A stretch of 61,053 nucleotides of DNA, filler included, from Basidioascus undulatus (lineage: Eukaryota), in assembly GCA_000826855.1 (NCBI GenBank). It is 14 parts of 14 records of this genome, joined end to end, with 100 filler letters (N's around TTAATTAATTAA, not from the genome) between each part and the next. Parts side by side here need not be neighbours in the genome. Positions count along the whole stretch, not along the records: positions 56,965 to 61,053 come from JTLS01002244.1; 13 more parts are not named here. The stretch is one strand, 5' to 3'. Below, in pieces: positions 4,133 through 61,053 of this stretch. The notes beneath the pieces were generated by a model. The model did no database searches, was not told where the DNA came from, and saw only the letters and a list, made by a program, of their open reading frames with translations. Positions within the stretch are counted from its first letter, which is position 1, and each line of letters starts with the position of its first letter. Position numbers and translations under genes: made by a program.

Positions 4133-4232
4133 NNNNNNNNNNNNNNNNNNNNNNNNNNNNNNNNNNNNNNNNNNNNTTAATTAATTAANNNNNNNNNNNN
4201 NNNNNNNNNNNNNNNNNNNNNNNNNNNNNNNN
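4133..4232. other. Artificial contig linker (44N-TTAATTAATTAA-44N), first of 13
   Basis: Identical linkers at 4133-4232, 8365-8464, 14847-14946, 19072-19171, 23285-23384, 27495-27594, 31699-31798, 35897-35996, 40093-40192, 44287-44386, 48481-48580, 52674-52773 and 56865-56964. The 12-mer gives stops in all six frames. Confidence 0.99.
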
Positions 4233-5736: not shown

Positions 5737-6426
5737 TTATGAACGTGATGCTATGCAGGAAAAGGGAAATCCGCGGTCCGAACTTCTACAACAGGTTTGC
5801 TTTGCACCGCTGCAGGAAGCGGACGTCAGAGACAGCCGGCGGACACGGTAAGGATGGCATGGGCGACGTACGCCCGTATGGTTCCCCCAGTCCTCCCGCT
5901 GGTGCTCCGCGGAGCAGTACCGCGCGCCCTTGCATCGCGCACAGACCTCGCAGTAGGAGATCGGCTGCTCATCAGCGTAGTCGACGTAGTCCCAGAGTGT
6001 CTGAATCTGAGCGGGTATGGGCCTGTTAGGGGCCACCCACGCGATGGTCTGCTCGAGCGCCTCCGCGGGGCCTTTCGAGCACGTCGCGCAAGAAGCGTCG
6101 AGGGATCGGATCGACCGGGGGCGGCGCGACGTGCGTGTCGATCCGGTACTGCATTCGAAGTGCGAGCAGGATGGAGCTGACCTGATAGGGTAGGTCGAAG
6201 AGCGCGTACGCCTGCGATGGGACTGCGCGGGCGTCCGGCGCGAAGAGGACGCCGGAGAACTGAGCGGGGATGACCGCTGTGGTGGCGGTGCCGGTGCGAG
6301 CGTCGAGCCACATCGCGCGGGCGGGGAGCTCGTACACGGACAGGCACTGGGTGATGTGCAGGCTGTTGAGTATCTTGGTCCAAGTAACGGACGTCGGTCG
6401 TCCAGATCCTCAACCTCTGTATACAA
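5737..6426 (-). pseudogene. MYND-type zinc finger protein, degenerate
   Basis: YCEVCARCKGARYCSAEHQREDWGNH at about 5878-5956. Coding-like text switches frame near 6073 (RFLRDVLE / GPAEALEQTIAW) and probably again near 6337. Confidence 0.55.
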
Positions 6427-7144
6427 GAACTTGCCGTGTCACTGGAACAAATAAACGGAATTCGATGAATACATCCAATGGGTCAGAGCTAATGGTATAG
6501 TGCGTTCAAGCAACAGAGAGTTACCGAGCCTGTTGTTGGAAAGGCCGCACGGGATCCACATTCGGAACGCGAACTAGGCGTCCTGTGGGGTTGCAACGCA
6601 AATCAGACATCTTAAACCAAAAGTAAATAACTTTGTTTTCTAACCTCCTGTGCCAGTCAGCAGACTTGATGGGCAGCTTTGACGCCTCATCGCTGAACTC
6701 GTCGACCGGCAGTCCACACTCCTTTCGTTGGTTTTCCTCTTTGAGGATGCCGATCCCCCAAGCCGCGAAGATACATCTCTACAACTATCCGCTCCACCGA
6801 TATCTCATAGCACAGGCTGCTTTTCCGCTGGCGTAGGGGGATCAGGCAGCCCACACTAACACTTTTGTACCTTTCTTCTCATGTTTCTGTGCTCTGATGC
6901 GTCTGAGTGAAAGAGGGCTACGAATCAGAACGAGAAATTTTCTTTGGTTACGCCGCTTGGGAGAATCACCATCGGGAATGAGGGCATCAAGCAACTAGCC
7001 GCGTCGCGGAGCTCGCTCGCGGCCAGTCCCCCTCGAGCCACCCGACCACCATCATCACCCGAACGACAGAACAACCACGCCTCCTCCCATCCACAGAGCC
7101 ATCGACCCAAACCCCTCGTTCTTTACCTCGAATCCCTCTTCGAA

Positions 7145-18991: not shown

Positions 18992-19171
18992 CTGGAGCGC
19001 GGCCGGCGGTGTCAGTTCACAGGCGAGTCCTCAGGCGAGGGTCGGTGGGGAGCGGGAGGGAGCGGGGAGTCNNNNNNNNNNNNNNNNNNNNNNNNNNNNN
19101 NNNNNNNNNNNNNNNTTAATTAATTAANNNNNNNNNNNNNNNNNNNNNNNNNNNNNNNNNNNNNNNNNNNN

Positions 19172-19250
19172 TCTGGCCGGGAATTGAACCCGGGTCGCCC
19201 GCGCCATTGTAAATGACAAGCGGATATACTAGCCACTATACTACCAAAGA
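19172..19250 (-). tRNA. tRNA-Asp(GTC) with 10-nt intron
   Basis: Minus strand reads TCTTTGGTAGTATAGTGGCTAGTATATCCGCTTGTCA[TTTACAATGG]CGCGGGCGACCCGGGTTCAATTCCCGGCCAGA. Anticodon at 19215-19217, intron at 19204-19213 after position 37. The last few 3' bases are cut by the contig end. Confidence 0.93.
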
Positions 19251-33163: not shown

Positions 33164-35353
33164 TCACTTCCTCGCCGGCAAGCCCTTCCACGTCTCCCAC
33201 CCGCCTTCCTCGATGCGCTCAATCTTCTCGTGCACCTCGTCCTCGAGCCCGGCGAGGTAGCGCTCCATCTCGCCCACGAGGCGCGGGATCCCCGCGGAGA
33301 GGACGCGCACGGCCAGGAGACCCGCGTTCATCCCGCCGTTGATCGCGACGGTGGCGACGGGGATGCCGCGCTGTGTGTTTGTGGGGGATGTGAGCCGGGT
33401 GGGGGAAGGTGAAGGAAAAGGAGAGCAGGAAGGTAAGGAGGAGAATACGCACAGGCATCTGGACGATGGAATGCAGCGAGTCGACGCCGTCCAAGCTGGA
33501 ACCCTTGACGGGCACGCCAATCACGGGCAGGGGCGTCATGGCGGCGACCATGCCTGGCAAGTGAGCCGCGCCGCCCGCGCCCGCGACAATAACGCGGACG
33601 CCGCGCGCGGCGGCGCTCTTAGCGAAGCGGACCATGCGGTCAGGCGTGCGGTGCGCGGAGACGATGCTGAGTTCGTAGGGGATGTTGAAGCGCGCGAGGA
33701 TGTGGCTCGCGGGGAGCATGACGGCGAGGTCCGAGTCGGAACCCATGACGATGCTGACCAGCGGCATCGGGTCCGAATGCGGCCGCGCGGGCGTCCCGCT
33801 CGTGGGGTGCAGGGCCGAGATGTGCGCGAGCGCGCTCAGCGGCGCGCGCGCCTCGGAGGACGGCAGGTGGTGCAGGAGCGACTGGATTTTGTGCCGCACG
33901 GCTGCGGACGACTCGCCCACGACCGTGATGTGCCCCATCTTGCGGCCCTTGCGCGAGCCGGCCTTCCCGTACAGGTGCACGTGCGCGCCCTCGATCGAGA
34001 GCGCCGCGCGCGCGAGCGACAGGACGCCAGGCTCCGGGTCATCGGACCGCCCGAGCAGATTCAGCATTCCGGAAGCGGGGACGACGAGGGAGGTGGCACC
34101 GAGCGGGAGGGAGAGGATCGCGCGGAGGTGGTTCGCGTATTGCGACGTCGCGCACGCTTCGATCGTGTAGTGCCCCGAGTTGTGCGGGCGGGGCGCAATC
34201 TCGTTCAGGAGGAGCGTACCTGGTGTTGAAAGCGTGGAGTGAGAAAGACGCCTAGGAAGAAAGAGCGGGGGAGGAGGAGGAGGAGGAAGACACACCATCC
34301 GCCATCAAGAACATCTCCACGCCAAACACGCCCGCGCCCCACAGCGCCGCAACCGCCTTCTCCGCGACCTCCCGCGCGCGGCTCTGGACCGTCTCGTCCG
34401 CGCAGAGGAGCGGGGCCCAGACGATGCTGCAGATGCTGTCCTCGTGGACGGTCTCGACGGCGGGGTAACTGCGCACTTCGCCGTCATGGCCGCGGACGAC
34501 CATGACCGCGATCTCGGCGACAAACGGCGCAAGCGCCTCGGCGTACAGCCCGCCGCCTTTGCTCGCCTTGCTGAGGGCCTCGAGCGCGGCCGGCCCGTCC
34601 TCCGACGACCGGAGGAGGTAGTTCCCCTTCCCGTCGTACGCCTGCGTCCGGGCCTTCAGCATGAGCGGGTACCCGCCCAGCTGCTCCGCGACGGCCTCCA
34701 GCGCGTTCGGTGTCGCCTCCTCTAGCGCCGCATAGTCCGCGACGGGGATACCCGCCGAGGAGAGGTGCTCCTTCTGTGCGAACTTGTCCTGGATGACGCG
34801 GATGGTTCGCGAAGAGGGCGCGACGACCACGCGCCCCTCGCGCTCGATCTCCTCCAGCACACCCGCGTCCACGTGCTCGATCTCGACCGTCAGGACGTCG
34901 ACCTTGGACGCGAGCTCGCGGATCGCAGAGGGGGAGGAGAACGAGCCAGAGACGTGCTCGGCGTTGAGCGAGGACAGCTGCTTCGCGGGCGTGGAGGGGC
35001 CGTCGTCGAGGATGAGGACTTTGAGGCCGAGCAGGTGCGCCTCGGAGAGCAGCATCCGGCCCAGCTGGCCGCCGCCTGGAGGGAGGGGGGAAGGGGGTGT
35101 CAGCATGGACAACGGATGCGAGGGATGGTGCGTGCCTGCTTGGGAGCCTCAGGCGCTGTGAAAGGTGTCTGAACCACGATCCTGCTACCTCCAGCTCTAC
35201 AGCTCCCCTTCATATGTACGTCCCGTCGACATCCCTCCAGGCTCCTTGCAGATACACCGCACCCATTCCGAGCCCAACCTCCCCCACGCTCACCACGCCT
35301 CTAGGGACCCGCCACTCACCCAGGAGACCAATCGTCCTGTTGTCCAAGCTCAT
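33164..35353 (-). CDS. ADE2: Phosphoribosylaminoimidazole carboxylase (PurK-PurE fusion)
   Basis: [67 protein letters not shown] and [12 protein letters not shown]. Stop at 33164. Complete, three introns. Confidence 0.97.
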
Positions 35354-39398: not shown

Positions 39399-42019
39399 TG
39401 CTAGTGCTCGTCACCGGCAACGGCCTCACTCCTCCCTTGCCACCTCCTTCACGACCCCCCTCCTTCCCTCCGTCCTTACGCCCTCATTACGTCGCTTCGC
39501 CCCCGCTACCGCTACCGATCGATCCCCTCACGCCTACACCACGCCCAGCCCCTGACCGGCAATCCGCTCGCTCTATGTTCAACCCCCGAACGCACACACA
39601 CGCACGCCCGCTACGCACACACAGCTCGCCAAGCGACACACGCTCTTTTATGCCCTGCCCACACCTCCTCTCCGTACCACCACGCTCCATATGGACACTC
39701 GCTCTCCTCCATCCCTTCCTCTCTTGCTAGCTAGTCTTGGAACCTTCTTCGCATATCGAACACTTTTCTCGACTTCACTTTGTTTTTATCCTCCCAGGTT
39801 TTCCCGCTTTCCATACGGACCTTCCCATTCTCTTCGTGCACATCCAACATTGTCGTTCGCCTCGCATCTCGTTCCGTTTTGCATTCATACACACATATCA
39901 TTTCATTTTCCATCACACACGTAGCATAGCATATCATCCCCATCCTCAATTCGAAATGTTCTCGTTTCTCGCTCTTGTCCCATTTGTTCCGAACTGTTTG
40001 TTACCCTCTTCATTTTCTCTCTCACCCTCGACCAACTCTGGCTCTTCTTTCTTCTTCGTTCCCACACTCGCCCACGACGACGACCTCACATGNNNNNNNN
40101 NNNNNNNNNNNNNNNNNNNNNNNNNNNNNNNNNNNNTTAATTAATTAANNNNNNNNNNNNNNNNNNNNNNNNNNNNNNNNNNNNNNNNNNNNAAGGCCTC
40201 ACCGTCATGCCCCCCAACGACGCTGCGGTATTCATCCGCCTGCTCAAGAAGGGGGCGCTGGGGGCGGTGGGAGGAAACGGAAAAAGAACGGCCCCGGCGC
40301 GGGGGGGGGGCCGAGCAACAAGAAGAAGGACACGCGTGCAGAAAAACCGTGCAGGTTCTGGAACGGCTCGCCTGGATCGTAAGACCATCTCGTCTTCCGT
40401 CTGCGGGAAGCTCACAGACGCCGCCGTCCTTCTCACGGGCGTTGATGAAGGGTCCGGAAGCCCCCATAGCGGACCCTGAGGCGCAGGGCGGCGGCGGCGG
40501 CGAGTTTCCCGCGGTGCCACATGGTTGAAGAACCGAGAACTGATTGTATTGGTGGCTTCCGCAATCCTGCATCGCCTTACGTAACAGATGTTACAATGGA
40601 AGGTTCGTTTTAATCCTTGTCCTACTCTATAGCGTCAATAATGTAACTGACTCGACAACCACGGACAGCAACTGTCCATGGCGGCATGTCTGAATGTCTT
40701 CGCCGTGGAGTCCCAGCCATCTGCACTTTTTTCGTCTTTTTCGGGCTTCGTTTTTCCTAGCATAGCATCATCCTCCATATTTTCTCAGCCATTCCTGCGT
40801 TCCCTTTACTAGTTCAGCTAGCTACCCTCGCCTTCCGTTCGTCTCCCGCGCATTCCCTCCCTCGCATAGATAGCAGCATCCCCCCCCCACACACGCACAC
40901 ACGCACAGCATCGAAGCATCGCATCGTCGCATCATGTCGTTGGACGCGTCCGCCTGCCAGATGCAAACACGAGAACGCGAGATGAAACTCCGAACTGGCT
41001 AGATAGCGGGACGCCGTGCGCGGGACAAAGGGGGTGTTGCATCTTTTCTTTTGTGTGCATGCGACGATCCGGTCGCTGTCCTGAGCTGCGCCGCGGTGTC
41101 ACGGAAAATTTGCCCGCTGGACGGGAAAGGGATGGGGTGGACGGAAATCTAGGCTACGAGTCTGCCTGTCGGTAGCAGTATGCCTAGAGATTCCTGATTG
41201 TTCATAAGAGAGTGCCGTGTGGTTGCGGCTGGACTGACTTCGTCAGATGACGAGACTGTGACCGTGACTGCAGGCTCTTGGCAATTCTCTTGTTGGCGTC
41301 GGGGCAGCTGCATTGAACTGACACCAGCGTGGCTGTGGGGCCCATTTAACCGGATAACGGAATACAACAAATTGGCCTTTGGATACTCACCAGTATGCGC
41401 TACACTGAACCAGAGGAGGCCCGTTAGATCGGCCGGGAAACCGTAGCATTTCCCAGTCCGTGAAGCTGGTATTCATAGCATGGGAACGGAGATGTCTTCC
41501 CCAAGATTTCAAGAATTGTTTGTAATTTGTAACTATACATGAGGCTATGCACTCAGACTGATGTCGGGTGGGTGCGGGCTGTGACTGCCGGTGGATCTGG
41601 TGGTCCTGTTGTCGGCGGGGCCAGCTGTCCCGACGACAGACTGGTCAGGTGGATCTCAAACGCATAAAGAGGATGAAGATAGCTGCTTTTTGTGTGGGTA
41701 TTTTTCATCAGGAGCTATGTCGAAGGGGAGGATATCCGGTTTCGGGAAGTAGCGAGCAGCATTTCGCATTGCGTCATTAAGGTGCGCATGGGGTCGTAGC
41801 CTGCGATTGCGACGTCTCTCGAGCCAAGCTTTCAGAAAGTTGCATATTTAACCAAATACCTTAACAAAGAGTAAAGATTGCGCAATCAGCCTAGTGTGCG
41901 GCGAAGATGGGGTACTTGAGCAGTAAGTACAGGCGTCAATTATCACGAACTTCGGGTGGGGTATTGAAATGGGATTAACAGCTTTTAAAGCTTTTTAACA
42001 TATTCCATCCGAAGGGGGG

Positions 42020-43200
42020 TTTGAAATGATTGTGGAAAGGGGGTCTTGCTTTTCAATCGCCATTGGAAACCTATTGAAATTCCATTGCAATGTCATTCCA
42101 AATGGTTTTCCTCTTGATTGGAAATCCGCACAATCCTTTCAATAAAGAATGCCAGGAAAGAGGGAAATTTTGATGCTTCGGTTGTTCCTCCTTTGGGCTT
42201 CTTGCTCTCCCCAGCTGATGTTCCCAGCCATTTTGCTTTGTTTGTTGGAGCTGCTGTTCAAGGCCATAAATTTAAGAAACTTACTTATGATTCAATCTAT
42301 CAACCTTTGTACCAAGTTCAGTCTGGATATTTATCATTGCTCTAACCGCGCCTCTAAGACGGGCAGTTTCTGAGGCGATCTTATCAGCACATTTGGGCAA
42401 GGCTCCCTGCAGCAAGTCTATTACTGCATGAACTTGAGCATCCAAGCACCATATGTTATGCTTAATAAATAAACTCTAGTTCTATGGCGGTACCCGTCAC
42501 TATTTCCACTCTGTTATTAGAACTTTACGCAGCCTCAAGATTCTTGGATCAGAGTGCCCAAGCATCTGAAAGTCTTCCTCCTGTAACAAAGCCTAGGGAG
42601 TCTTTTAGTGACTATATTCCAAACACTTTCAAAGTCAGATGCAAAGGATCTGCAGTATGTGAGACATGAAGGAACACACCTCAGGCCCAATCTCCGCGGA
42701 TGATGGATGTCCTATAAGCTAGTCTTCAAAGCCACTTAGGTGTACACTATATTCAGTGTTAATAAAATGTGTAAGTATTTGGAAATTCGAATAGATCGAT
42801 ACCATCAGTCGCTTACAGAAGAGACACATGTTTCTGCTCCCAGAGTGCGCAACAAGGCCACGCTTGCATGATCCTGTCGAGTCGCCATGTATGGACAGCT
42901 GGGCACTATGCTGTTCACACCTGAAAATTTTGAGATATTGAATTTGGTTACGACATAGAGATCATTTTGGCTGTGTATGCTAGATTCACATTGAATTTCC
43001 TACGCGTACACAATGTAATCAATGGTCGAAGGTATCATTTCTGATGGGTTCACGATACATTCAATAGGAACTCAATAAACAGGGAGGTTAGCAACACATT
43101 TCCATGAGAACTGCCATTTCTACATCGATTTTCCATCAAGGGGGTTTCCCCCAAGTTTCCCACAGCTTGAGGGGTTTTCAACCACTACAACCATTTCAAA
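42020..43200. mobile_element. Possible decayed TIR transposon relic
   Basis: AT-rich block with no long ORF, bounded by a 14/16 inverted match: TTTGAAATGATTGTGG (42020-42035) vs CTACAACCATTTCAAA (43185-43200). Related TTGAAAT words lie near the left end. Confidence 0.3.
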
Positions 43201-53102: not shown

Positions 53103-54813
53103 ATGCCATCATCTACTGCCCTCCAAATCCAAGCCATCGAAATGTCGCGCGAGAACACCCCCCTGCTCTTTCGCGACCGCCGGGACGGCGGGCCTGCCCA
53201 GGAGAGAGAACACACCCACGAGAACGGGTCTGCGATGGATCGGTTCAAGTTGGATCTGAAGGCGGGGTTCTGCGAGGTGCGTTTCGGAGAATGGTGCTGA
53301 AGGGTGGGAGAGCTGATGCCCGCTTGCTTGCTTGCGTGCTTGCAGTTTCTGGGGACATGCATGTTCGTGAGTCTCCAGTCCCAAAACCAATATACAATAC
53401 TCGCATCGGCTGACCCAAAGCTCTTGCGACCCGCTCTTTCAGCTCTTCCTCGGCCTCGGCGGCATCCAAGCCGCGTCCGTGACATCCCTCAACGAATACA
53501 AGAAGCACCGCCACGACGAGACCAGCAGCGGGGCGATGTCGCCCGATCAGCTCATGCTGATCGCCACCAGCATGGGGCTCTCGCTCGTCGTGCGTTGCAG
53601 GCTTTTATTCTGAGGGTGGGAGGACTAGGTTTGTGCTGAAAAGCCTTGACGCGCAAGGTATCCGCTTGGTCCTTCTTCCGCGTCACTGGGTCGATTTTCA
53701 ATCCTCAGGTCGGGCTGGTACGTTAGTGTCCGAACCGACCAAATTTTCGATTGTGTGTGAGGCACTGAGGCTGAAGGCCTGTATGCAGGCGCTCCTGCTC
53801 TGCGGCGTCATCTCCCCCATGCGGTTTGTTTTCACCTGCGTCGCACAGGTCAGGGCCTTCCTATCCTCCATACCCAAACCTCACCTCAATTTAAGTCAAT
53901 TCCCAACAGCTTGCAGGCGCGGTCGTCGCCTCGGGCCTAGTACACCTCCTCTTGGGCGGACCGATCGAGTTCGCCACGTCGATCTCGCCCGGCACATCCA
54001 CCGCTCAAGTGGGTGGTTTTTCAAATTCTTCATTATATATCGTGGGAGGAGATTGAGGGATGTTGGACAGGCCGTCTGGCTCGAGGCGCTCATGACCGCC
54101 ACGCTCGTCCTCTCCGTGCTCATGCTCGCAGCGGAGAAGCACCGCGCGAGCTACCTCGCGCCTGTGGGGTTCGGGTTGACGCTGTTTGTTACGCAGCTCT
54201 GTGAGTCCCGACCGGGTTGAGAACTTTTTTCTTGTATAGGCGTGCCTTATGTTGACAACATGATTGTGATTTCAGTTGGCGGACCATACACCGGCGCAGC
54301 CGTCAACTCTGCGAGGGCTTTCGGACCGGCTGTCATCCATGGTCAGTTATATGGGACGAGACGCCGAGCAGTGCAGGGAAATCTCAACGGTGTTCCTGTT
54401 GTACAGGCTTTGAGTCCCGCCACTGGGCCTACTGGGTCGGCCCGTCCCTCGGGAGCCTGATCGGCACGGCAGTCTACTTCATGTTGACCGTGATGGCTTA
54501 CTGGTACGCTCCACCTCTCCTTGCCTTAACACATCCCCTCATACAGCCGCCTCCTCACCATTCCTTATCTGCTTGGAACAGGAACATCAACCCCCTCCAA
54601 GACACGGACGCCTTCCACGCCTCGCCGCGCAGCCCGCTCGGCATTCCGTCCATCGGCCGCGCCCTCTTTGGGGAGACGTGGGCCGCTGCGTCTCGGACTG
54701 ACGGGCATGGGTATGTGGCTGATGAGGAGGCCGGTGAAGGTGGGCGCGCGATGGGGAGGAACAAGGATCGCGTAAGGTCGAGCGAGGAGGGGGAGGGAGC
54801 GGAGAGGGCGTAG
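53103..54813 (+). CDS. Aquaporin (MIP family) with NPQ/NSA motifs
   Basis: E-FLGTCMF-LFLGLGGIQAA, FFRVTGSIFNPQVGL, LMLAAEKH...APVGFGLTLF, YTGAAVNSARAFGPAVI and HWAYWVGP. Start at 53103 or 53142. Confidence 0.93.
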
Positions 54814-55920
54814 GGGAAGCGGGTGGTGGGCATGGGAGTGTTGCTTGAAATAAACAAAGGACATTTTGGGGGGTCGAAAATATTTTGGGTAGTGTGCTGT
54901 ATGGAAGATACGAGGGTTGGCTGATGCAGTGCAAGCTCTGCATGTGGTCGTCCGCCGGTTGAAGGGTAGTGTTCTTCTCCAAAGCCATCAAGCCGTACTC
55001 GCAAAACCATTTGGGAAAGAGTAACAATTGTTCACTACCAAACTGAATATCAAGCTAAATATCTGGGCCCGCTCAATCTGAGCACATCTGAGCTGCGAAG
55101 GGTTGCGAAGCGTCTCCCGCCCTCAGATACCGACGACGCGCTATCGCCACCCACAGGCGGTCTTGCTTCTTCTATCCGGATTTCCATCTTGAGAATCTAC
55201 TAGGCTTGCTTTCAAAAGTGTAGCCCCGAATGGCCACATTGACAGGATAACTTCCGACCACGGATTCGGTGAGGCGCCAAATAAAAGCTCGACTTAATAT
55301 ACCGGCCGCCTTCCAACCCCAGTGAGAGCATCAGCATGTGTACATCTTCCTATTGCGTATATTGTGGTCGGCTTAAGCTAGTCCGCGACGGTAAAGTACC
55401 TATTTCGCTGTGGCACAGAGATCGTCGAGGATTGTTTGCCATCGGCGTGACATCCCGGGAGCGGAGTCGTCGCAGCTGCGTCGGTCGAAAAGTCGGTCTA
55501 CACCGGCCCTGCGCTTGCCTTTTTTCGTGATGTGCCCTCTTTATTTCTCTGCTGGATATGCGAATCCTACAGGCTATTTATTGCGAAAGAGGAAATGTAG
55601 AAGTTGGCGCAGGCTGAGCGAGTGTGGAGAGTCGCAGGCCATTATTTCATCACGCGGAACTGGAAGACCGGGCGGGCCTGGCTGCATTTTGCAGCGGCGA
55701 GGGCTTCCCCTCTTGACCGCCGTCGTCGTCTTCTCAAGACGCCTCTTTCCTCGGCTGCCCTTCCCCGCCGCCGACTCCCCTTATCCTCCGGTCCCACAGC
55801 ACCGCTGAGGATCCCTTTTTCTTTTATTCTCCAGTACGCCAGGCCGGGTACACCGCCAGGCCCCAGGACGCCAGTCTCCCCCTTTCCTCTCCCCGCCACC
55901 GACACTCTCAGTCGCAGGCG

Positions 55921-56392
55921 ACCCCCAGTGACCCCTGCTCATCCCGACCTGCCCCAAACCCACCCAATGTCCAGCTCGAAGGAGAACACCTCGAGGTTGA
56001 CCGCATCATCAGCACACGGATGTACAGGTGTCAGAAGCAATACCTCACCCAGTGGAAGCACTGCCCACCTGAGGATGCAATGTGGCTCACGGCGCAAGAC
56101 CTTGACAACCTGGAGTACTTCCACTATGACAACCACGATGCACAATGAGGGCATTGTGTCTACAGAGGGGGAGAGTGTGAGCGGACTCCCCTGCATCACA
56201 CCCAAGGTCCCTCCCAGCCACACCCCTGTTGCCACCCTTCCAGAACTTTCCATCTCTTTCTATCTCTTTCCACACTTTCCCAGCTCTTTGTAACACTTCC
56301 CATGAAGCCCCCCAACTGTATATAAGAGGACCAGCACCCTTTGGATAGCCCTTGGGTACACCTTTGCCCACACCAAGGGGTGTATCCTCACA
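55921..56392 (+). mobile_element. 3' relic of a Ty3/Gypsy chromovirus: chromodomain, PPT and 3' LTR
   Basis: The frame from 55921 reads RPAPNPPNVQLEGEHLEVDRIISTRMYRCQKQYLTQWKHCPPEDAMWLTAQDLDN. PPT AGAGGGGGAGAG at 56164-56175 directly precedes the LTR. Confidence 0.85.
56176..56392 (+). repeat. LTR, 217 bp
   Basis: Starts TGTGAG and ends CTCACA (6-bp inverted termini). Internal TATATAA at 56319-56325. Almost free of CpG. Confidence 0.8.
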
Positions 56393-57394
56393 CACATGGC
56401 CCTTTCACCCAAGTTTTTCTTTCTCTCCTGCACACAACTTCCTATACACTCCTCCACATTGTTTTTCTTCAAGCCATGATAAAAAGGGCCACTTCATCAT
56501 CTCTACTTTCCTCTTCATGAAGATACACTTGCTCCTGGCTCATTGGCTGAGTGCTTTTCACTTTCGATATTCAAGGCCGGTTCTGTATGGTTAGAAAGGA
56601 GGTTAACCTGGATATAAAGATGAACTTTAGGTGGCCTTGATCAACCGTAGAAGGTATTTGATTTTACTTCCGTTCGAATGTAGGTTGATAGGAAGGAGAA
56701 AGTTGCCAGTATTGAAGATTATAGTGGGATATGTCACTTCCTTGCTTCGCCATCGATGTAAGCTGAGTGAACCGTGCAGGGGAGTGACTTCAATATAGAT
56801 GCAGCAGTGCCAGCTCCCACCGTTTTATACACGAGAGTATGAAAGGGAATATTCGAGTGAAAGGNNNNNNNNNNNNNNNNNNNNNNNNNNNNNNNNNNNN
56901 NNNNNNNNTTAATTAATTAANNNNNNNNNNNNNNNNNNNNNNNNNNNNNNNNNNNNNNNNNNNNAGGGTGAGAGCGTAAAATGAGGTGGCAAGGTTTGAC
57001 AGTTGTCGAGGATTGAATGTTTGTTAAGACGTTCATGACACCCAGGTTCCCACGAGGAAGCAACCGCGTCGGCGCCGCGTCCTCTCCCTCTCCCTCCCTT
57101 TCCCTCCTCTCCTTCCGGCACTCATCTCCCCATCTTCCCATCTCCCTCGACCCTCACGCCTCCTCATCCAACCTTGGTAGCCGACGACCCCTCTTCCTCG
57201 CTCTCCAGCATCTTCCCCTCCCCTCCCGCTCACAACAGCGCATACGCGCCTCCCTGCGCGCGCTCCTCCCGCACCTGCCTTCGACACTGCCCCCCGGCCT
57301 CGCAGCGCAAAACGACTTCCTGAGAGTTGGCAGGTACTTAAGGGACGCAGACGAGGACGTACCTTTTGACCTGCGCGCAGGGTTGGAGCCCCCG

Positions 57395-58206
57395 AGGGTG
57401 GATTGGATTGAGGAGGAGGGGGGGTACAATGTCTCAAGTGTTGATGTGGCCCCTGCACCAAAGCAACCATACCTGCAGAGGGAAGAGACCACACATTGCA
57501 CATAGCTCACTAGGCTTTATTGCAAACTGCATCATCTTGTGGAAGAAGCAAAGGCAAATGATGATCTGTGCAACCACCTTGCCTTCCTTTGCCACTGCAC
57601 AAGCAATGACACCAAATGACTTTGAAACCAGTGGTAGACAACAAGGACATACTGGACTTGCAGAGCTGCTTGCATGAGAGGTGTCCCTCTCCTCCACAAA
57701 CACCTGCTGTAGGTGGGCTTTGAAAGAGTGTACCTTGCCATGAGCAGAAACAGGACTCCAGGGTCTCATGGGGGATTGTGTGTGCTGTCAATGTTCACAT
57801 GGAGATCAAGCATGTGTGACTGGACATGCAACATGTCTTTGTGCAGAGGAAGAGTGTGCACATATACCACCATGATCAAGGAGCCATGGGGCTTGTAGTA
57901 ACAGAAGAGCAGGTCATTCAGTGCAAACATCCCTTTGTCCCTGCTTGCAATAAGCTGCTGGAGCATGCATGCCTTGCTTGGGCACATGGGCTTGTGCATA
58001 GGCCAATCTGGCTTTTGACAGGCAATGGAGCAGTAGGATGCTGAGAAGGTTGCAGGTTGTCAGTTGCAACAGGGGAAGGAATACACACAAAGCTGCTTTA
58101 CATGCAGCATGCACCTGGAGCTTGACCATGTCCAAGGCCTTGATGGAGCACCACCTGCATTGCTTCTGCATGGTCATCCATGTGACCACCATAGATGAGG
58201 TGGCTG
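57395..58206. other. CpG-free island, probably a hypermutated repeat or gene relic
   Basis: By-eye scan found no CG between those at 57393-57394 and 58207-58208. TG and CA are abundant. Confidence 0.8.
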
Positions 58207-59355
58207 CGAGGCAAAGTAGTGAAAGGCGAAATGATTGAGCACAAACAGGGATGAGGGACAAGGAGAAGGTGACAAGGAGAAGATGAGAAGGTGTTGAGTG
58301 AAGGGCTGCAGGCAAACTCAGTATCTGGGCAGGAGAGGAATCAAAAAATAAATAACAAATGTCATACAATTAGCTCGACGATTGAAGCATCAGATTTTTC
58401 CTAAAAAGTAGTAGGACCAAATAAAATCAAATTCTAAGCCTAGTTTGTTGAATGGTATCAACCATACACATAGGCGGAACAGTGCCACTGTGTGCTACAC
58501 TTGTAGTGCCTTTCTCAGCATTCATGCACTGATGCCATGCATATAAACTGAAATGGATATATATTTGCGAAAAACAAGGGGTTGACCAATTAAGAAGCAC
58601 TTAGTACACCCTGACAAAACAGCAAACTGTGGACTGGTAGTTACAACAACTGGCAGCCACATTGAGACTGAAAGTGCTTGAATATGTATTTGGATGCCTT
58701 GGACACAGCCTGAAATTTCTTCAAGCTTCTCTGACACTCCCGGCTGGTGTTGCTGGGTCAAGACCTCACTTGGTGGTGTCATCAGTGTCCCAGCCTTGTT
58801 GTGACCTGTCCTTTACCATCTTGACTCTCTAATTCACAACTTTTACAATGAACACTGAACACCCTATATGCCATGACTGTACCCTGTCTCCCTGCTGTCA
58901 TCAGATCAAAGTTCATGCATATCTCTGTGCTGCACAAATTTTCGGGACAATAATGAGGGCTTAGTGGCGCGAACTATTCAAATCTGCGGGAGTGGTGGGC
59001 CCTTTCCTGATCTGTTACTTAAGAGTTTGTCCCCATTGCCAAAGACTTGATTTCTCAGCTGGCTTACTTTGTGTGCAGAACATCTGATCTATGAGACTAG
59101 GAGGCTGCACAAGAGGGTGATGAGCCAAGACATTGCCTGGGAATCTCAGCAAGTCCTACGCTTCGTAATGAGCAGTGCAGGAGGAGTGTTGTTTGACACA
59201 ACCAAAAAAAAAAGACAAAAAGACAAACCAGGACGCGCGCGAGCCAGTGTTATACTTGCAATTCTCAGCAAGGTTCCTTGAAGTTCCAGCAAAAACACAT
59301 GCCCAAGATCCGCGCTCAAACGTAGCATCCATGTCCGCCCCGCGCCTCTACCCAT

Positions 59356-60104
59356 CTACCGCCGCCTCCTGCCCCTCGCCGCCGCCTCTATCTTCTCATT
59401 CCGCTTCTTCAGCTTCGCCTGGCGCTTGCTGAGCGCGTCATCGGCGCCCGCGGGGGTCCCGCTGGGCGCGGCAGACGCTGAGGAGGAGAGGGAAGGCAGC
59501 CTGAGCCCGAAGAAGGGCAGGGCGATGCTGAGGAGCTTATAGAGTGCGAAGAGGGGGACCTGCAGGCGGTGGAGAAAGTGGGTTGGGATGTGGATTTGAG
59601 AGGAGAAAAGAGGGGCACGCACGACGAGGTATAGGTACCACAGCTTGTCCCCGAAGAGGCCGGTCAGGACGAGGCATCCCCAGCTCACGTAGACTGTTGG
59701 CCCCCAGCACCTGAGCGCTCGCACATCGAAGAGAGCAAAGCGCCACTCACCGACATCCCAACCCCACTCAATCAGTCCACCCTCCCTCCCCAGGTCCTCC
59801 CCCTCGTTCACCAGCTCCCCCCTCGCGCCGTATTTAGGCGTGCCCCATCGGCCAAACAAGACAGCGATCCACGCTGCTGGCGCGGTGAGGCCGCCGGTGA
59901 GGAGCGCGGAGCGCGTGGAGGGGTACCCACTGAGGAGGAGTCGGAAAGAGAGGTGGAGGAAGAGCGCGATCGCGAAGCCGAGGCGAAGGACGCGGATGGA
60001 AGCTGCGTTGGAGGATGCCACGCGCTTGGCGGAGGCGTTGGCCTGATCGGGGGGAAAGGGTGAGAACGATTTAAGAGTGACTTTGAGAGTAGGCAGCGTA
60101 CCAT
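59356..60104 (-). CDS. SND2: SRP-independent targeting protein 2 (TMEM208 family)
   Basis: ATG-only exon at 60102-60104. MANASAKRVASSN...GELVNEGEDL...GLIEWGWDV-VYVSW...LWYLYLV-VPLFALYKL...SKRQAKLKKR. Complete. Confidence 0.9.
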
Positions 60105-60339
60105 CGTGAAAGTCTCTGGCAGTCGATGGACTTGGAAGCGAGAAGGCAGCCAGCGTGTGCGCGGCTTGGCAATTCGCGATTCACGACATCAAGGATCAGG
60201 GCGGACCGAGAGCCCGGTCCCTCTTGACCCAGTCCTTTCCTCCCCGCGCGGAAGCTTGAGCGCCAAACCACCTCGCCCTTGCTCGACAATCGCCAACTAG
60301 CATCTCCCTCGCAGTTTCCGCATCCAGCGCTCGCACACC

Positions 60340-61053
60340 ATGTCCGAGCCACCAGCGATAACATTCTCCACGACCGTGCCCGCAGCCGATGCGCCCTCAG
60401 CCGAGTCCATCGACGCGTCCACCTACGACTTCCTCTCCTCCCTCTTTACCACCGCCGCGCCCGCCCTGTCCGCCCCGCCGCCGCCCCAGCACCCCGCGTC
60501 CGTGACGACGTTCAACGACTTTGACTTTGACTTCTCGAGCCTCCAGCAGGCCGCCCAGGCCCAGGCGCAGAGGGAGCAGCAGCATGCCCAGCAGCAGACC
60601 CAGCAGCAGCAACAGCAGCAGCAGCAGCAGCGCGGCGCGTCGGGCGAGAACGGCTCGCAGCAGCACCAGGTCGACCCGCTCTTGTTCCAGGATGGGGGAA
60701 TCCTCGGCGGCGCGCTTGCCGGGATTGTAGCCCAGAATGGAGCGGCCGCGGCCGCGGCTGTGGCGGCGGCGGCGGCGGCAGGTGAGCCTTGCAGGCGCGC
60801 GGAAATGCTTCTGAATCAGTGCAGGGCTGACGCGTCAGATGGGATGGATAGCTCAACAACAGCAGCAGGCGCGTGATGCCGGGGAGGGAACGAGCTCGCA
60901 AGCCGGTCAGACGCAGCAGGCAGCTTCCCAGCAGTCGGGTGCGTCCTTCCATTGCGGCACCTTTCGAACACTATACTGACACCCTTCTCGTTGCCCCCCC
61001 AGCCGCACGTTGCCCCTCTCCCCGCCCCGCTGCGGGGAGTTTCGCAGAAGCAG
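60340..61053 (+). CDS. N-terminus of a polyQ/polyA protein, possibly a transcription regulator
   Basis: MSEPPAITFS...FNDFDFDF...polyQ...VDPLLF, with an intron donor at about 60782. Divergent from SND2. No DNA-binding domain is visible. Confidence 0.55.

Follow-up and report, generated by a model that had tools for sequence, protein, structure and literature searches.

A gene-sized CpG-free tract over a putative MYND zinc-finger gene of Basidioascus undulatus, and its possible origin in methylation-linked decay

We describe here a tract of about 0.8 kb that lacks CpG dinucleotides altogether (hereafter the island) and the three-exon gene for a MYND-type zinc-finger protein proposed to lie within it, in the draft genome of Basidioascus undulatus (GCA_000826855.1). 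The analysis drew on a window of 61,053 bases, on public sequencing runs aligned to this window, on protein searches and on metagenome scans. This window strings together contigs of ~4.1 kb, with artificial linkers (44 N, TTAATTAATTAA, 44 N) between them, and 14 such linkers were counted between positions 4133 and 56964; features spanning a linker are artefacts, and contigs that adjoin in the window are not to be taken as neighbours in the genome. The CpG-free tract sits in the last contig (56965–61053), and the gene runs on the minus strand from 58192 down to 57434.

The gap between the CpGs at 57393 and 58207 (814 bp) is the longest in the window and agrees with the ~810 bp without CpG announced in the original prediction. 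The next-longest gaps were 383 bp (56182–56565, in another CpG-poor patch) and 202, 173 and 172 bp, all three in the zone to the right of the island; elsewhere in the window, CpG gaps did not exceed ~168 bp. The CpG-free core (57394–58206) has 0 CpG, with TG and CA each over-represented about 1.9-fold. Over the 812 bases from 57395 to 58206, the GC content is 0.50, TG occurs 98 times (observed/expected ratio, O/E, 1.88), CA occurs 92 times (O/E 1.89) and TA is scarce (O/E 0.38). Base composition alone would predict 50 CpGs in these 812 bases (Poisson P ~1e-22 for zero), and even at the O/E of 0.26 found in the neighbouring zone, ~13 would be expected (P ~2e-6); the CpG O/E of the whole window is 1.05. 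The excess of TG plus CA over their native frequency was ~0.113 per bp, or ~92 sites, the native coding CpG density being 0.128 per bp, and restoring these ~92 sites to CG raises the GC content to ~0.61, the level of the flanks (0.62–0.64). Since both the TG/CA excess and the restored GC content match native values, the tract looks like ordinary genome sequence in which every CpG is now TpG or CpA. The composition thus supports the earlier view of native GC-rich sequence with every CpG replaced, on either strand and whatever the flanking context. A bisulfite-like artefact was ruled out, the cytosines outside CpG being intact.

The two edges of the core differ. The left edge is sharp, with 6 CpGs within the 50 bp to the left of 57395, and abuts a CpG-normal flank (57041–57393) that is CT-rich on the plus strand and holds most of a plus-strand open reading frame (ORF, 57017–57505); the sequence from 56965 to 57394 contains 35 CpGs (O/E 0.93). 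The right edge is graded. It passes into a partly CpG-depleted zone upstream of the MYND gene (58207–59160; 12 CpGs, O/E 0.26), with TG and CA at O/E 1.58 and 1.33, a GC content of 0.44 and no coding signal, which reaches the 3' end of a neighbouring TMEM208 gene; normal CpG density was found only beyond ~59230. Native windows of low GC content elsewhere have a CpG O/E of ~0.8–1.1. The locus therefore has a two-tier structure, with a saturated core of 0.8 kb within a depleted domain of ~1.8 kb (57395 to ~59160).

The locus is continuous in independent data. A 32,660-bp contig of run X1 spans 57013–61003 with 1 difference and crosses the edge at 57395. In run X2, from a different study and dated 2014, a 1310-bp contig spans 57013–58294 with 0 differences and crosses the same edge, and a second contig spans 58319–60995. 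Because X1 may be the source sample, it is X2 that serves as the independent witness of the junction. Neither run carried variant letters over the CpG-free tract, and the tract is fixed. The original prediction had allowed for foreign DNA joined at 57395; this is not the case, as the X1 and X2 contigs bridge the edge with 1 and 0 differences, and the junction is neither an assembly join, since contigs of two studies run across it, nor a foreign insert. Direct or inverted repeats framing 57395–59160 were looked for and none was found, so there is no transposon-insertion signature. As a side observation, the X2 contig ending at 58294 terminates in 28 letters unlike the window, and the break before the next contig (58294–58319) lies within repeat-like sequence rich in GGAGAAG, upstream of the MYND gene; this break could reflect a variation in length or a branch in the assembly.

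An origin of the island as foreign or chimeric DNA (an assembly join, a contaminant, a horizontal transfer or a synthetic CpG-free construct) is extremely improbable. The short contigs and artificial linkers of the window could suggest it, as could the start of the last contig in a high-copy element. However, the two sides of the island are connected by contigs of two studies, its codon-position GC content and codon usage fit those of decayed native genes (see below), and the sizes of its introns fit those of the host's neighbouring gene. Moreover, we know of no donor with zero CpG at 50% GC, and a transfer would merely shift the problem elsewhere.

The coding strand was determined with a codon model that takes decay into account. 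Pfam-validated ORFs of the window were subjected in silico to full conversion of CG to TG or CA, and the in-frame codon frequencies were set against those of the remaining five frames; in controls in which each ORF was left out in turn, the model placed the true frame at the top for 7 of 8 ORFs. In the island, all three plus-strand frames scored negative throughout, and minus-strand frames were positive, with ~+20 per 80 codons (the level of real genes) at 57700–58119 and weaker values on either side. The spliced gene models described below scored +25.5 (model A) and +28.0 (model B), compared with 28.6 ± 28.4 for native genes after simulated decay, and the unspliced island frames scored −6 to −75. 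The coding region of the island lies on the minus strand.

The original prediction had read the island on the plus strand, as the continuation of ORF 57017–57505, with one TAG left unexplained by CpG loss and a plausible helix in the restored peptide. A plus-strand gene of this kind, crossing the domain edge and erased in its downstream part, is very improbable. The ORF is present, its CpG-rich part scores +10 to +24 per 80 codons, and a 391-nt contig of run X3 (57132–57522, 0 differences), probably derived from cDNA, covers part of it. Nevertheless, the frame drops to −2 to −30 per 80 codons in the island, where it holds 5 TAG, 1 TAA and 4 TGA, so that the TAG and TAA codons give six stops that CpG reversal does not remove rather than the single TAG noted earlier. 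The ORF matches no Pfam family, and its positive score sits in CT-rich, low-complexity sequence. The helix is the antisense of exon 3 of the minus-strand gene (57434–57706), and nearly every such peptide takes on a helical look once Cys and His are replaced with Arg. The sharp left boundary stands, but what appeared to be a boundary inside a plus-strand ORF is more aptly viewed as the place where a minus-strand gene unit ends on its 3' side, the core matching the minus-strand coding region and grading off on the right. There is a practical warning in this, as restoring TG or CA to CG yields plausible Arg-rich peptides on either strand and cannot alone identify the frame. Furthermore, the scarcity of TA makes TAA and TAG codons uncommon in every frame of the island, and counting "explainable" stops cannot pick the frame either. 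Run X3 is probably cDNA, since the spliced form of the TMEM208 gene is present in it; its 391-nt contig crosses the CpG edge and overlaps the minus-strand gene over its final 29 codons. The lack of an X3 contig on 57523–59371 says nothing about expression, and a search of public runs listed no RNA run carrying the stretch.

The minus-strand gene has ~206–211 codons and two short introns. Exon 1 (58087–58192, with the ATG at 58192–58190) encodes the N-terminal half of the finger (Cys-x2-Cys, then His-x2-Cys), in a frame that is weakly positive in the codon model. Intron 1 (58041–58086, 46 nt) starts with GTGTAT, has a CTGAC 19 nt before its end and ends in CAG. Exon 2 begins at 58040 and ends at 57799 in model A or 57734 in model B; it contains the C-terminal half of the finger (58044–57982) and has the strongest coding signal of the island. 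Two alternatives were retained for the second intron: 57798–57707 in model A (GTGAAC..CAG, 92 nt), giving 206 codons without an internal stop (score 25.5), and 57733–57657 in model B (GTACAC..AAG, 77 nt), giving 211 codons with one TGA at 57768–57766 (score 28.0). Exon 3 extends from 57706 (model A) or 57656 (model B) to 57434, with the TGA stop codon at 57436–57434 in both models. Model B fits the fine-scale coding profile slightly better than model A, and neither model contains a frameshift, a TAA or a TAG. The exact splice sites are uncertain, since both donors lack G at position +5. The core follows the coding region to within 40 nt at either end: its left end lies 39 nt beyond the stop codon, and its right end 14 nt short of the ATG.

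The assignment to the MYND family is suggested by several observations. Exon 2 alone gave a half-domain match to the Pfam family zf-MYND (PF01753; E 4.7e-4, 20.6 bits, profile positions 19–39 of 39). In a six-frame Pfam scan of 57395–59200, the only other matches were at chance level (DUF4423_like, E 0.046; NYD-SP28, E 0.33). Removal of intron 1 puts both halves of the finger in one frame, with the eight ligands Cys-x2-Cys-x12-His-x2-Cys-x7-Cys-x3-Cys-x7-His-x3-Cys at residues 12–55; shuffling of the exon-1 peptide brought the N-terminal half into register in 29 of 200,000 trials, and one other such ligand pattern occurred by chance in the six frames of 57395–59160. In an Atlas feature search with exon 2, 20 of the 30 matches were zf-MYND clusters of 112–221 aa, commonest in Basidiomycota (best score 0.90, with 181 of 256 features shared). 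Searches by sequence found no homologue. The queries were single-frame, unaltered translations, as distinct from the spliced or CpG-restored protein: protein searches with the frame-0 read-through and with exon 2 (against longer proteins) returned no homologue, an exhaustive HMMER search with the frame-1 read-through found 0 proteins at E ≤ 0.001 among 1.84 billion, and a metagenome scan with exon 2 gave 14 pattern matches and no relative.

The amino-acid composition of the island carries the scars expected of CpG decay. Arginine accounts for 1.9% of residues, compared with 8.5% in native genes and 1.7% in native genes after simulated decay. The corresponding values (island, native, native after simulated decay) were 8.3, 1.7 and 4.2% for Cys; 5.3, 2.7 and 5.1% for His; 6.8, 1.4 and 3.6% for Met; and 2.4, 0.7 and 1.6% for Trp. 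The GC contents at the three codon positions (0.49/0.40/0.60) were likewise nearer to those of decayed native genes (0.56/0.44/0.64) than to those of native genes (0.67/0.54/0.81). A synthetic CpG-free gene was rejected as a candidate: such a design would keep Arg through AGA and AGG, yet Arg, at 1.9%, is depleted and not recoded. The MYND gene is most likely dead or dying. About one-quarter of its codons carry decay-type replacements, and one of the two models has an in-frame TGA. The replacements would be of Arg by Cys, His or Gln, of Thr by Met, and of Ala by Val.

We suggest, with confidence somewhat above even, that the island is the body of a minus-strand MYND gene that was silenced and underwent fast, methylation-linked conversion of CpG to TpG. 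About 90 ancestral CpGs would all have been converted to TpG or CpA, by CpG-specific C-to-T change on both strands and in every flanking context. A transition that is specific to CpG, symmetric and independent of context is the signature of 5-methylcytosine deamination. The CpG-poor domain of 1.8 kb would cover the gene and its upstream region and end at the neighbouring active genes, and the process may have been a hypermutation of a methylated, silenced unit, for instance a deamination driven by a methyltransferase, resembling repeat-induced point mutation (RIP) in effect. The scarcity of other damage (no frameshift, TAA or TAG, and introns that can still be drawn with GT..AG) implies that the conversion would have been very fast relative to ordinary mutation. 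The loss of ~90 of ~90 CpGs would correspond to at least 3.4–4.5 mean CpG lifetimes. In mammals, methylated CpGs mutate 10–50 times faster than other sites; at this ratio, the other sites would each have taken 0.07–0.4 changes over the same time, thus bringing frameshifts and TAA or TAG codons into 620 nt of unselected coding sequence. CpG methylation is maintained in Basidiomycota by DNMT5 and DNMT1-class enzymes (PMC13297926), and work on a rust fungus attributes CpG depletion of methylated transposons to deamination of 5-methylcytosine (10.1101/2025.05.29.656941).

Slow, passive decay is the first alternative to be weighed. Methylation of the domain would have lasted very long, with spontaneous deamination removing its CpGs, and the gene would be open because it is functional and under selection. 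Model A does give an intact ORF of 206 codons with GT..AG introns, the O/E of the upstream zone (0.26) resembles an equilibrium value, and deamination is the accepted explanation of CpG depletion in other basidiomycetes. We nevertheless consider this explanation somewhat unlikely. Zero CpG in 812 bp lies far below an equilibrium O/E of 0.2–0.26 (P ~2e-6 to 5e-5). If selection had acted, constrained Arg codons should have kept their CpG, yet Arg stands at 1.9% and Cys, His and Met are raised as in unselected simulated decay. If selection had not acted, the time needed would, at the rate ratios given above, have brought in frameshifts and TAA or TAG codons, and none was seen. Rapid saturating conversion is therefore favoured over slow passive decay, and also over the decay of a selected gene, because the Arg codons were not spared.

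Several points weigh against a rapidly converted, silenced MYND gene. Neither of the proposed intron donors has a G at +5, which makes them weak, and the second intron is ambiguous. The Pfam score of 20.6 bits falls below the gathering cut-off of 22.7 for MYND, and the third zinc ligand is His, where the usual MYND pattern has Cys. The scores of true genes in the codon model are broadly spread (standard deviation 28), so that the score of the gene model alone discriminates only moderately. The open frame is no evidence on function either way: CGA is rare in native genes (19 of 2952 codons) and, because of this, about half of native 206-codon stretches remain open after complete conversion (0.51 calculated, 0.585 simulated), and an open frame is therefore expected in about half of genes. 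No homologue was found in the searches described above, and the ancestral state at each site is therefore deduced from composition and not from an alignment. Finally, the argument on tempo uses mammalian ratios of CpG to non-CpG mutation, and the rates of this organism may differ.

A second alternative is RIP-like hypermutation triggered by duplication, as in the repeats of Pucciniomycotina, with the tract marking the extent of the duplicated segment. The sharp left edge, the match of the saturated core to a gene-sized unit and the confinement of the damage to one class of mutation would fit such a process. Basidiomycetes carry MYND genes in multiple copies, and the window contains a second one, unrelated to that of the island (5740–6438); the tree of the ADE2 protein weakly places the organism beside Microbotryomycetes; and Horns et al. 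(2012, PMC3318451) reported RIP-like patterns for each of the four Pucciniomycotina that they examined. Nevertheless, we regard this explanation as distinctly unlikely. Mutation context was tested on three partly depleted zones (58207–59160, 55990–56864 and 42000–43000), the core being saturated and uninformative on preference. The surviving CpGs in these zones gave O/E values of 0.19 for ACG, 0.38 for CCG, 0.44 for GCG and 0.43 for TCG, compared with 0.99, 0.79, 1.05 and 1.08, respectively, in native low-GC sequence. All four contexts are thus absent from the core and depleted in the three zones; the loss is independent of the 5' base, and the preferential loss of TpCpG that defines the RIP-like process was not seen in these zones. 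The link to the TCG-biased process drawn in the original prediction is not borne out. Furthermore, searches for copies of 57300–59300 in the 61-kb window (blastn, tblastx) returned chance matches only, the locus is continuous in the 32.6-kb contig of X1, and the right edge is graded. In the island, TG and CA are intermixed and do not form strand-coherent runs (99 runs observed, 96 ± 6.8 expected); this is a weak test, since roughly half of these dinucleotides are native.

A more far-reaching version would be a context-free, saturating hypermutation that can be aimed at a single gene-sized unit, from about the start codon to just past the stop, leaving neighbours 40 nt away untouched. This we consider unlikely. 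It would amount to a RIP-like inactivation of genes that is not tied to TpCpG and perhaps not to repeats, and the patches at 55990–56864 and 42000–43000 would then be additional, less fully converted targets of the same process.

In comparison with known systems, the locus appears to work like the methylation-linked CpG decay of fungal repeats, with an outcome that resembles RIP. It shares with the depletion by 5-methylcytosine deamination described for Basidiomycota (for example the rust Austropuccinia psidii) a change that is specific to CpG, yields TpG and CpA, is strand-symmetric and independent of context, and is found in a bounded silent domain next to CpG-rich genes that are unaffected. 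It differs in that the affected unit looks single-copy and gene-sized and is not a transposon family, that methylation is here deduced from the sequence, and that none of ~90 CpGs is left although there is hardly any other damage. The RIP-like TpCpG hypermutation of Pucciniomycotina (PMC3318451) is similar in its C-to-T change at C before G, in its localised, heavy mutation and in affecting basidiomycetes of a subphylum to which this organism possibly belongs, and is unlike it in that a TpCpG preference was not seen here and no repeat copies were found in the window. Hane et al. (2014, PMC4014442) reported for Rhizoctonia solani AG8 a CpG-to-TpG change within coding sequence, with TGA as the main nonsense product, as in the island; the mutations there are diffuse, heterozygous single-nucleotide polymorphisms between nuclei, genome-wide and with a CpG bias of ~40%, in contrast to one saturated, fixed tract. 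Classical RIP, as in Neurospora and other Pezizomycotina, has in common with the island a saturating C-to-T tract, at least one sharp edge and the capacity to inactivate a gene without insertions or deletions, whereas the target here is CpG and not CpA, TpA is depleted (O/E 0.38) rather than enriched, and the GC content has fallen only to 0.50. With respect to the short MYND proteins of Basidiomycota (PF01753), the gene is alike in the half-domain Pfam match and, as it seems, in the ligand pattern after splicing and the Atlas neighbours, and unlike in the sub-threshold score, the lack of a sequence homologue and the third ligand.

Methylation-linked loss of CpG is already known in fungal transposons, and RIP-like mutation in basidiomycetes only as a statistical bias in alignments of repeats. 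The locus adds a clean single case, in which one otherwise undamaged gene has lost its CpGs completely and independently of context, and whose edge can be placed to within some tens of bases, in a genome with a CpG O/E of ~1. The literature search, which was not narrowly aimed at this question, found no account of a fungal gene with a saturated CpG-free tract of gene size. If such tracts are methylated and gene-sized, they would provide a simple readout of how methylation domains are delimited in a basidiomycete and a measure of the speed at which methylated CpGs mutate there; if not, the locus is a well-described pseudogene.

Two features of the last contig frame the locus. The contig starts with a short high-copy element (56965–57040), whose depth relative to the single-copy flank is ~70-fold in X1 and ~55-fold in X2; it has many different continuations on both sides and occurs in X3 and a run from a soil metagenome as well. 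This element has no other copy in the window and no Rfam match, and is therefore not a known RNA; the Rfam scan found no RNA family anywhere in the contig 56965–61053. To the right of the island lies a native gene of the TMEM208/SND2 family (59356–60103, minus strand), which is CpG-rich and has introns of ~41–63 nt; the 63-nt intron at 59558–59620 is spliced out in X3, with GT..AG on the minus strand. A metagenome scan with this neighbour found two loci (L001 and L002) at 35–36% identity, too distant for synteny, and tblastn revealed no MYND gene near either of them. In the soil metagenome run X4, three 151-bp pieces matched 58169–58862 with 0, 3 and 5 differences; one of the four differences listed, at 58760, is CA in the window and CG in X4, and these are too few to indicate a mutation spectrum or a habitat.

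The organism is a basidiomycete as judged by the similarity of its ADE2 protein, whose homologues are 55–66% identical across all three basidiomycete subphyla. In a quick tree, the window protein appeared as sister to Microbotryomycetes (Shimodaira–Hasegawa-like approximate likelihood ratio test 94) on a long branch (1.62), and a position beside this class, in Pucciniomycotina, is thus tentatively and weakly indicated. The ADE2 gene (ATP-grasp, PurK_C and AIRC domains; 33222–35148, minus strand) is split over the overlapping ORFs 34255–35148 and 33222–34304, pointing to either an intron or a draft-sequence frameshift.

The second CpG-poor tract of the window (55990–56864, O/E 0.36) includes the CpG-free gap of 383 bp at 56182–56565 and runs to the end of its contig. 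It begins inside a chromodomain ORF (55717–56145, plus strand; Pfam Chromo, E 1.6e-7), and no other transposon domain was found in that contig. The third patch (42000–43000) has an O/E of 0.40–0.49 and a GC content of 0.43, with mildly raised TG and CA and no Pfam domain in any frame. The second MYND-finger ORF (5740–6438, minus strand; Pfam E 1.1e-7) is CpG-rich and apparently undamaged, and is unlike the island gene except in the finger motif. The sole Rfam match was a tRNA gene at 19169–19250 (minus strand, 38.7 bits), which begins in the last bases of a linker at the start of a contig. A match to the major intrinsic protein (aquaporin) family at 54263–54346 (plus strand, E 8.4e-8), in a frame broken by stops, is probably one exon of an intron-rich gene.

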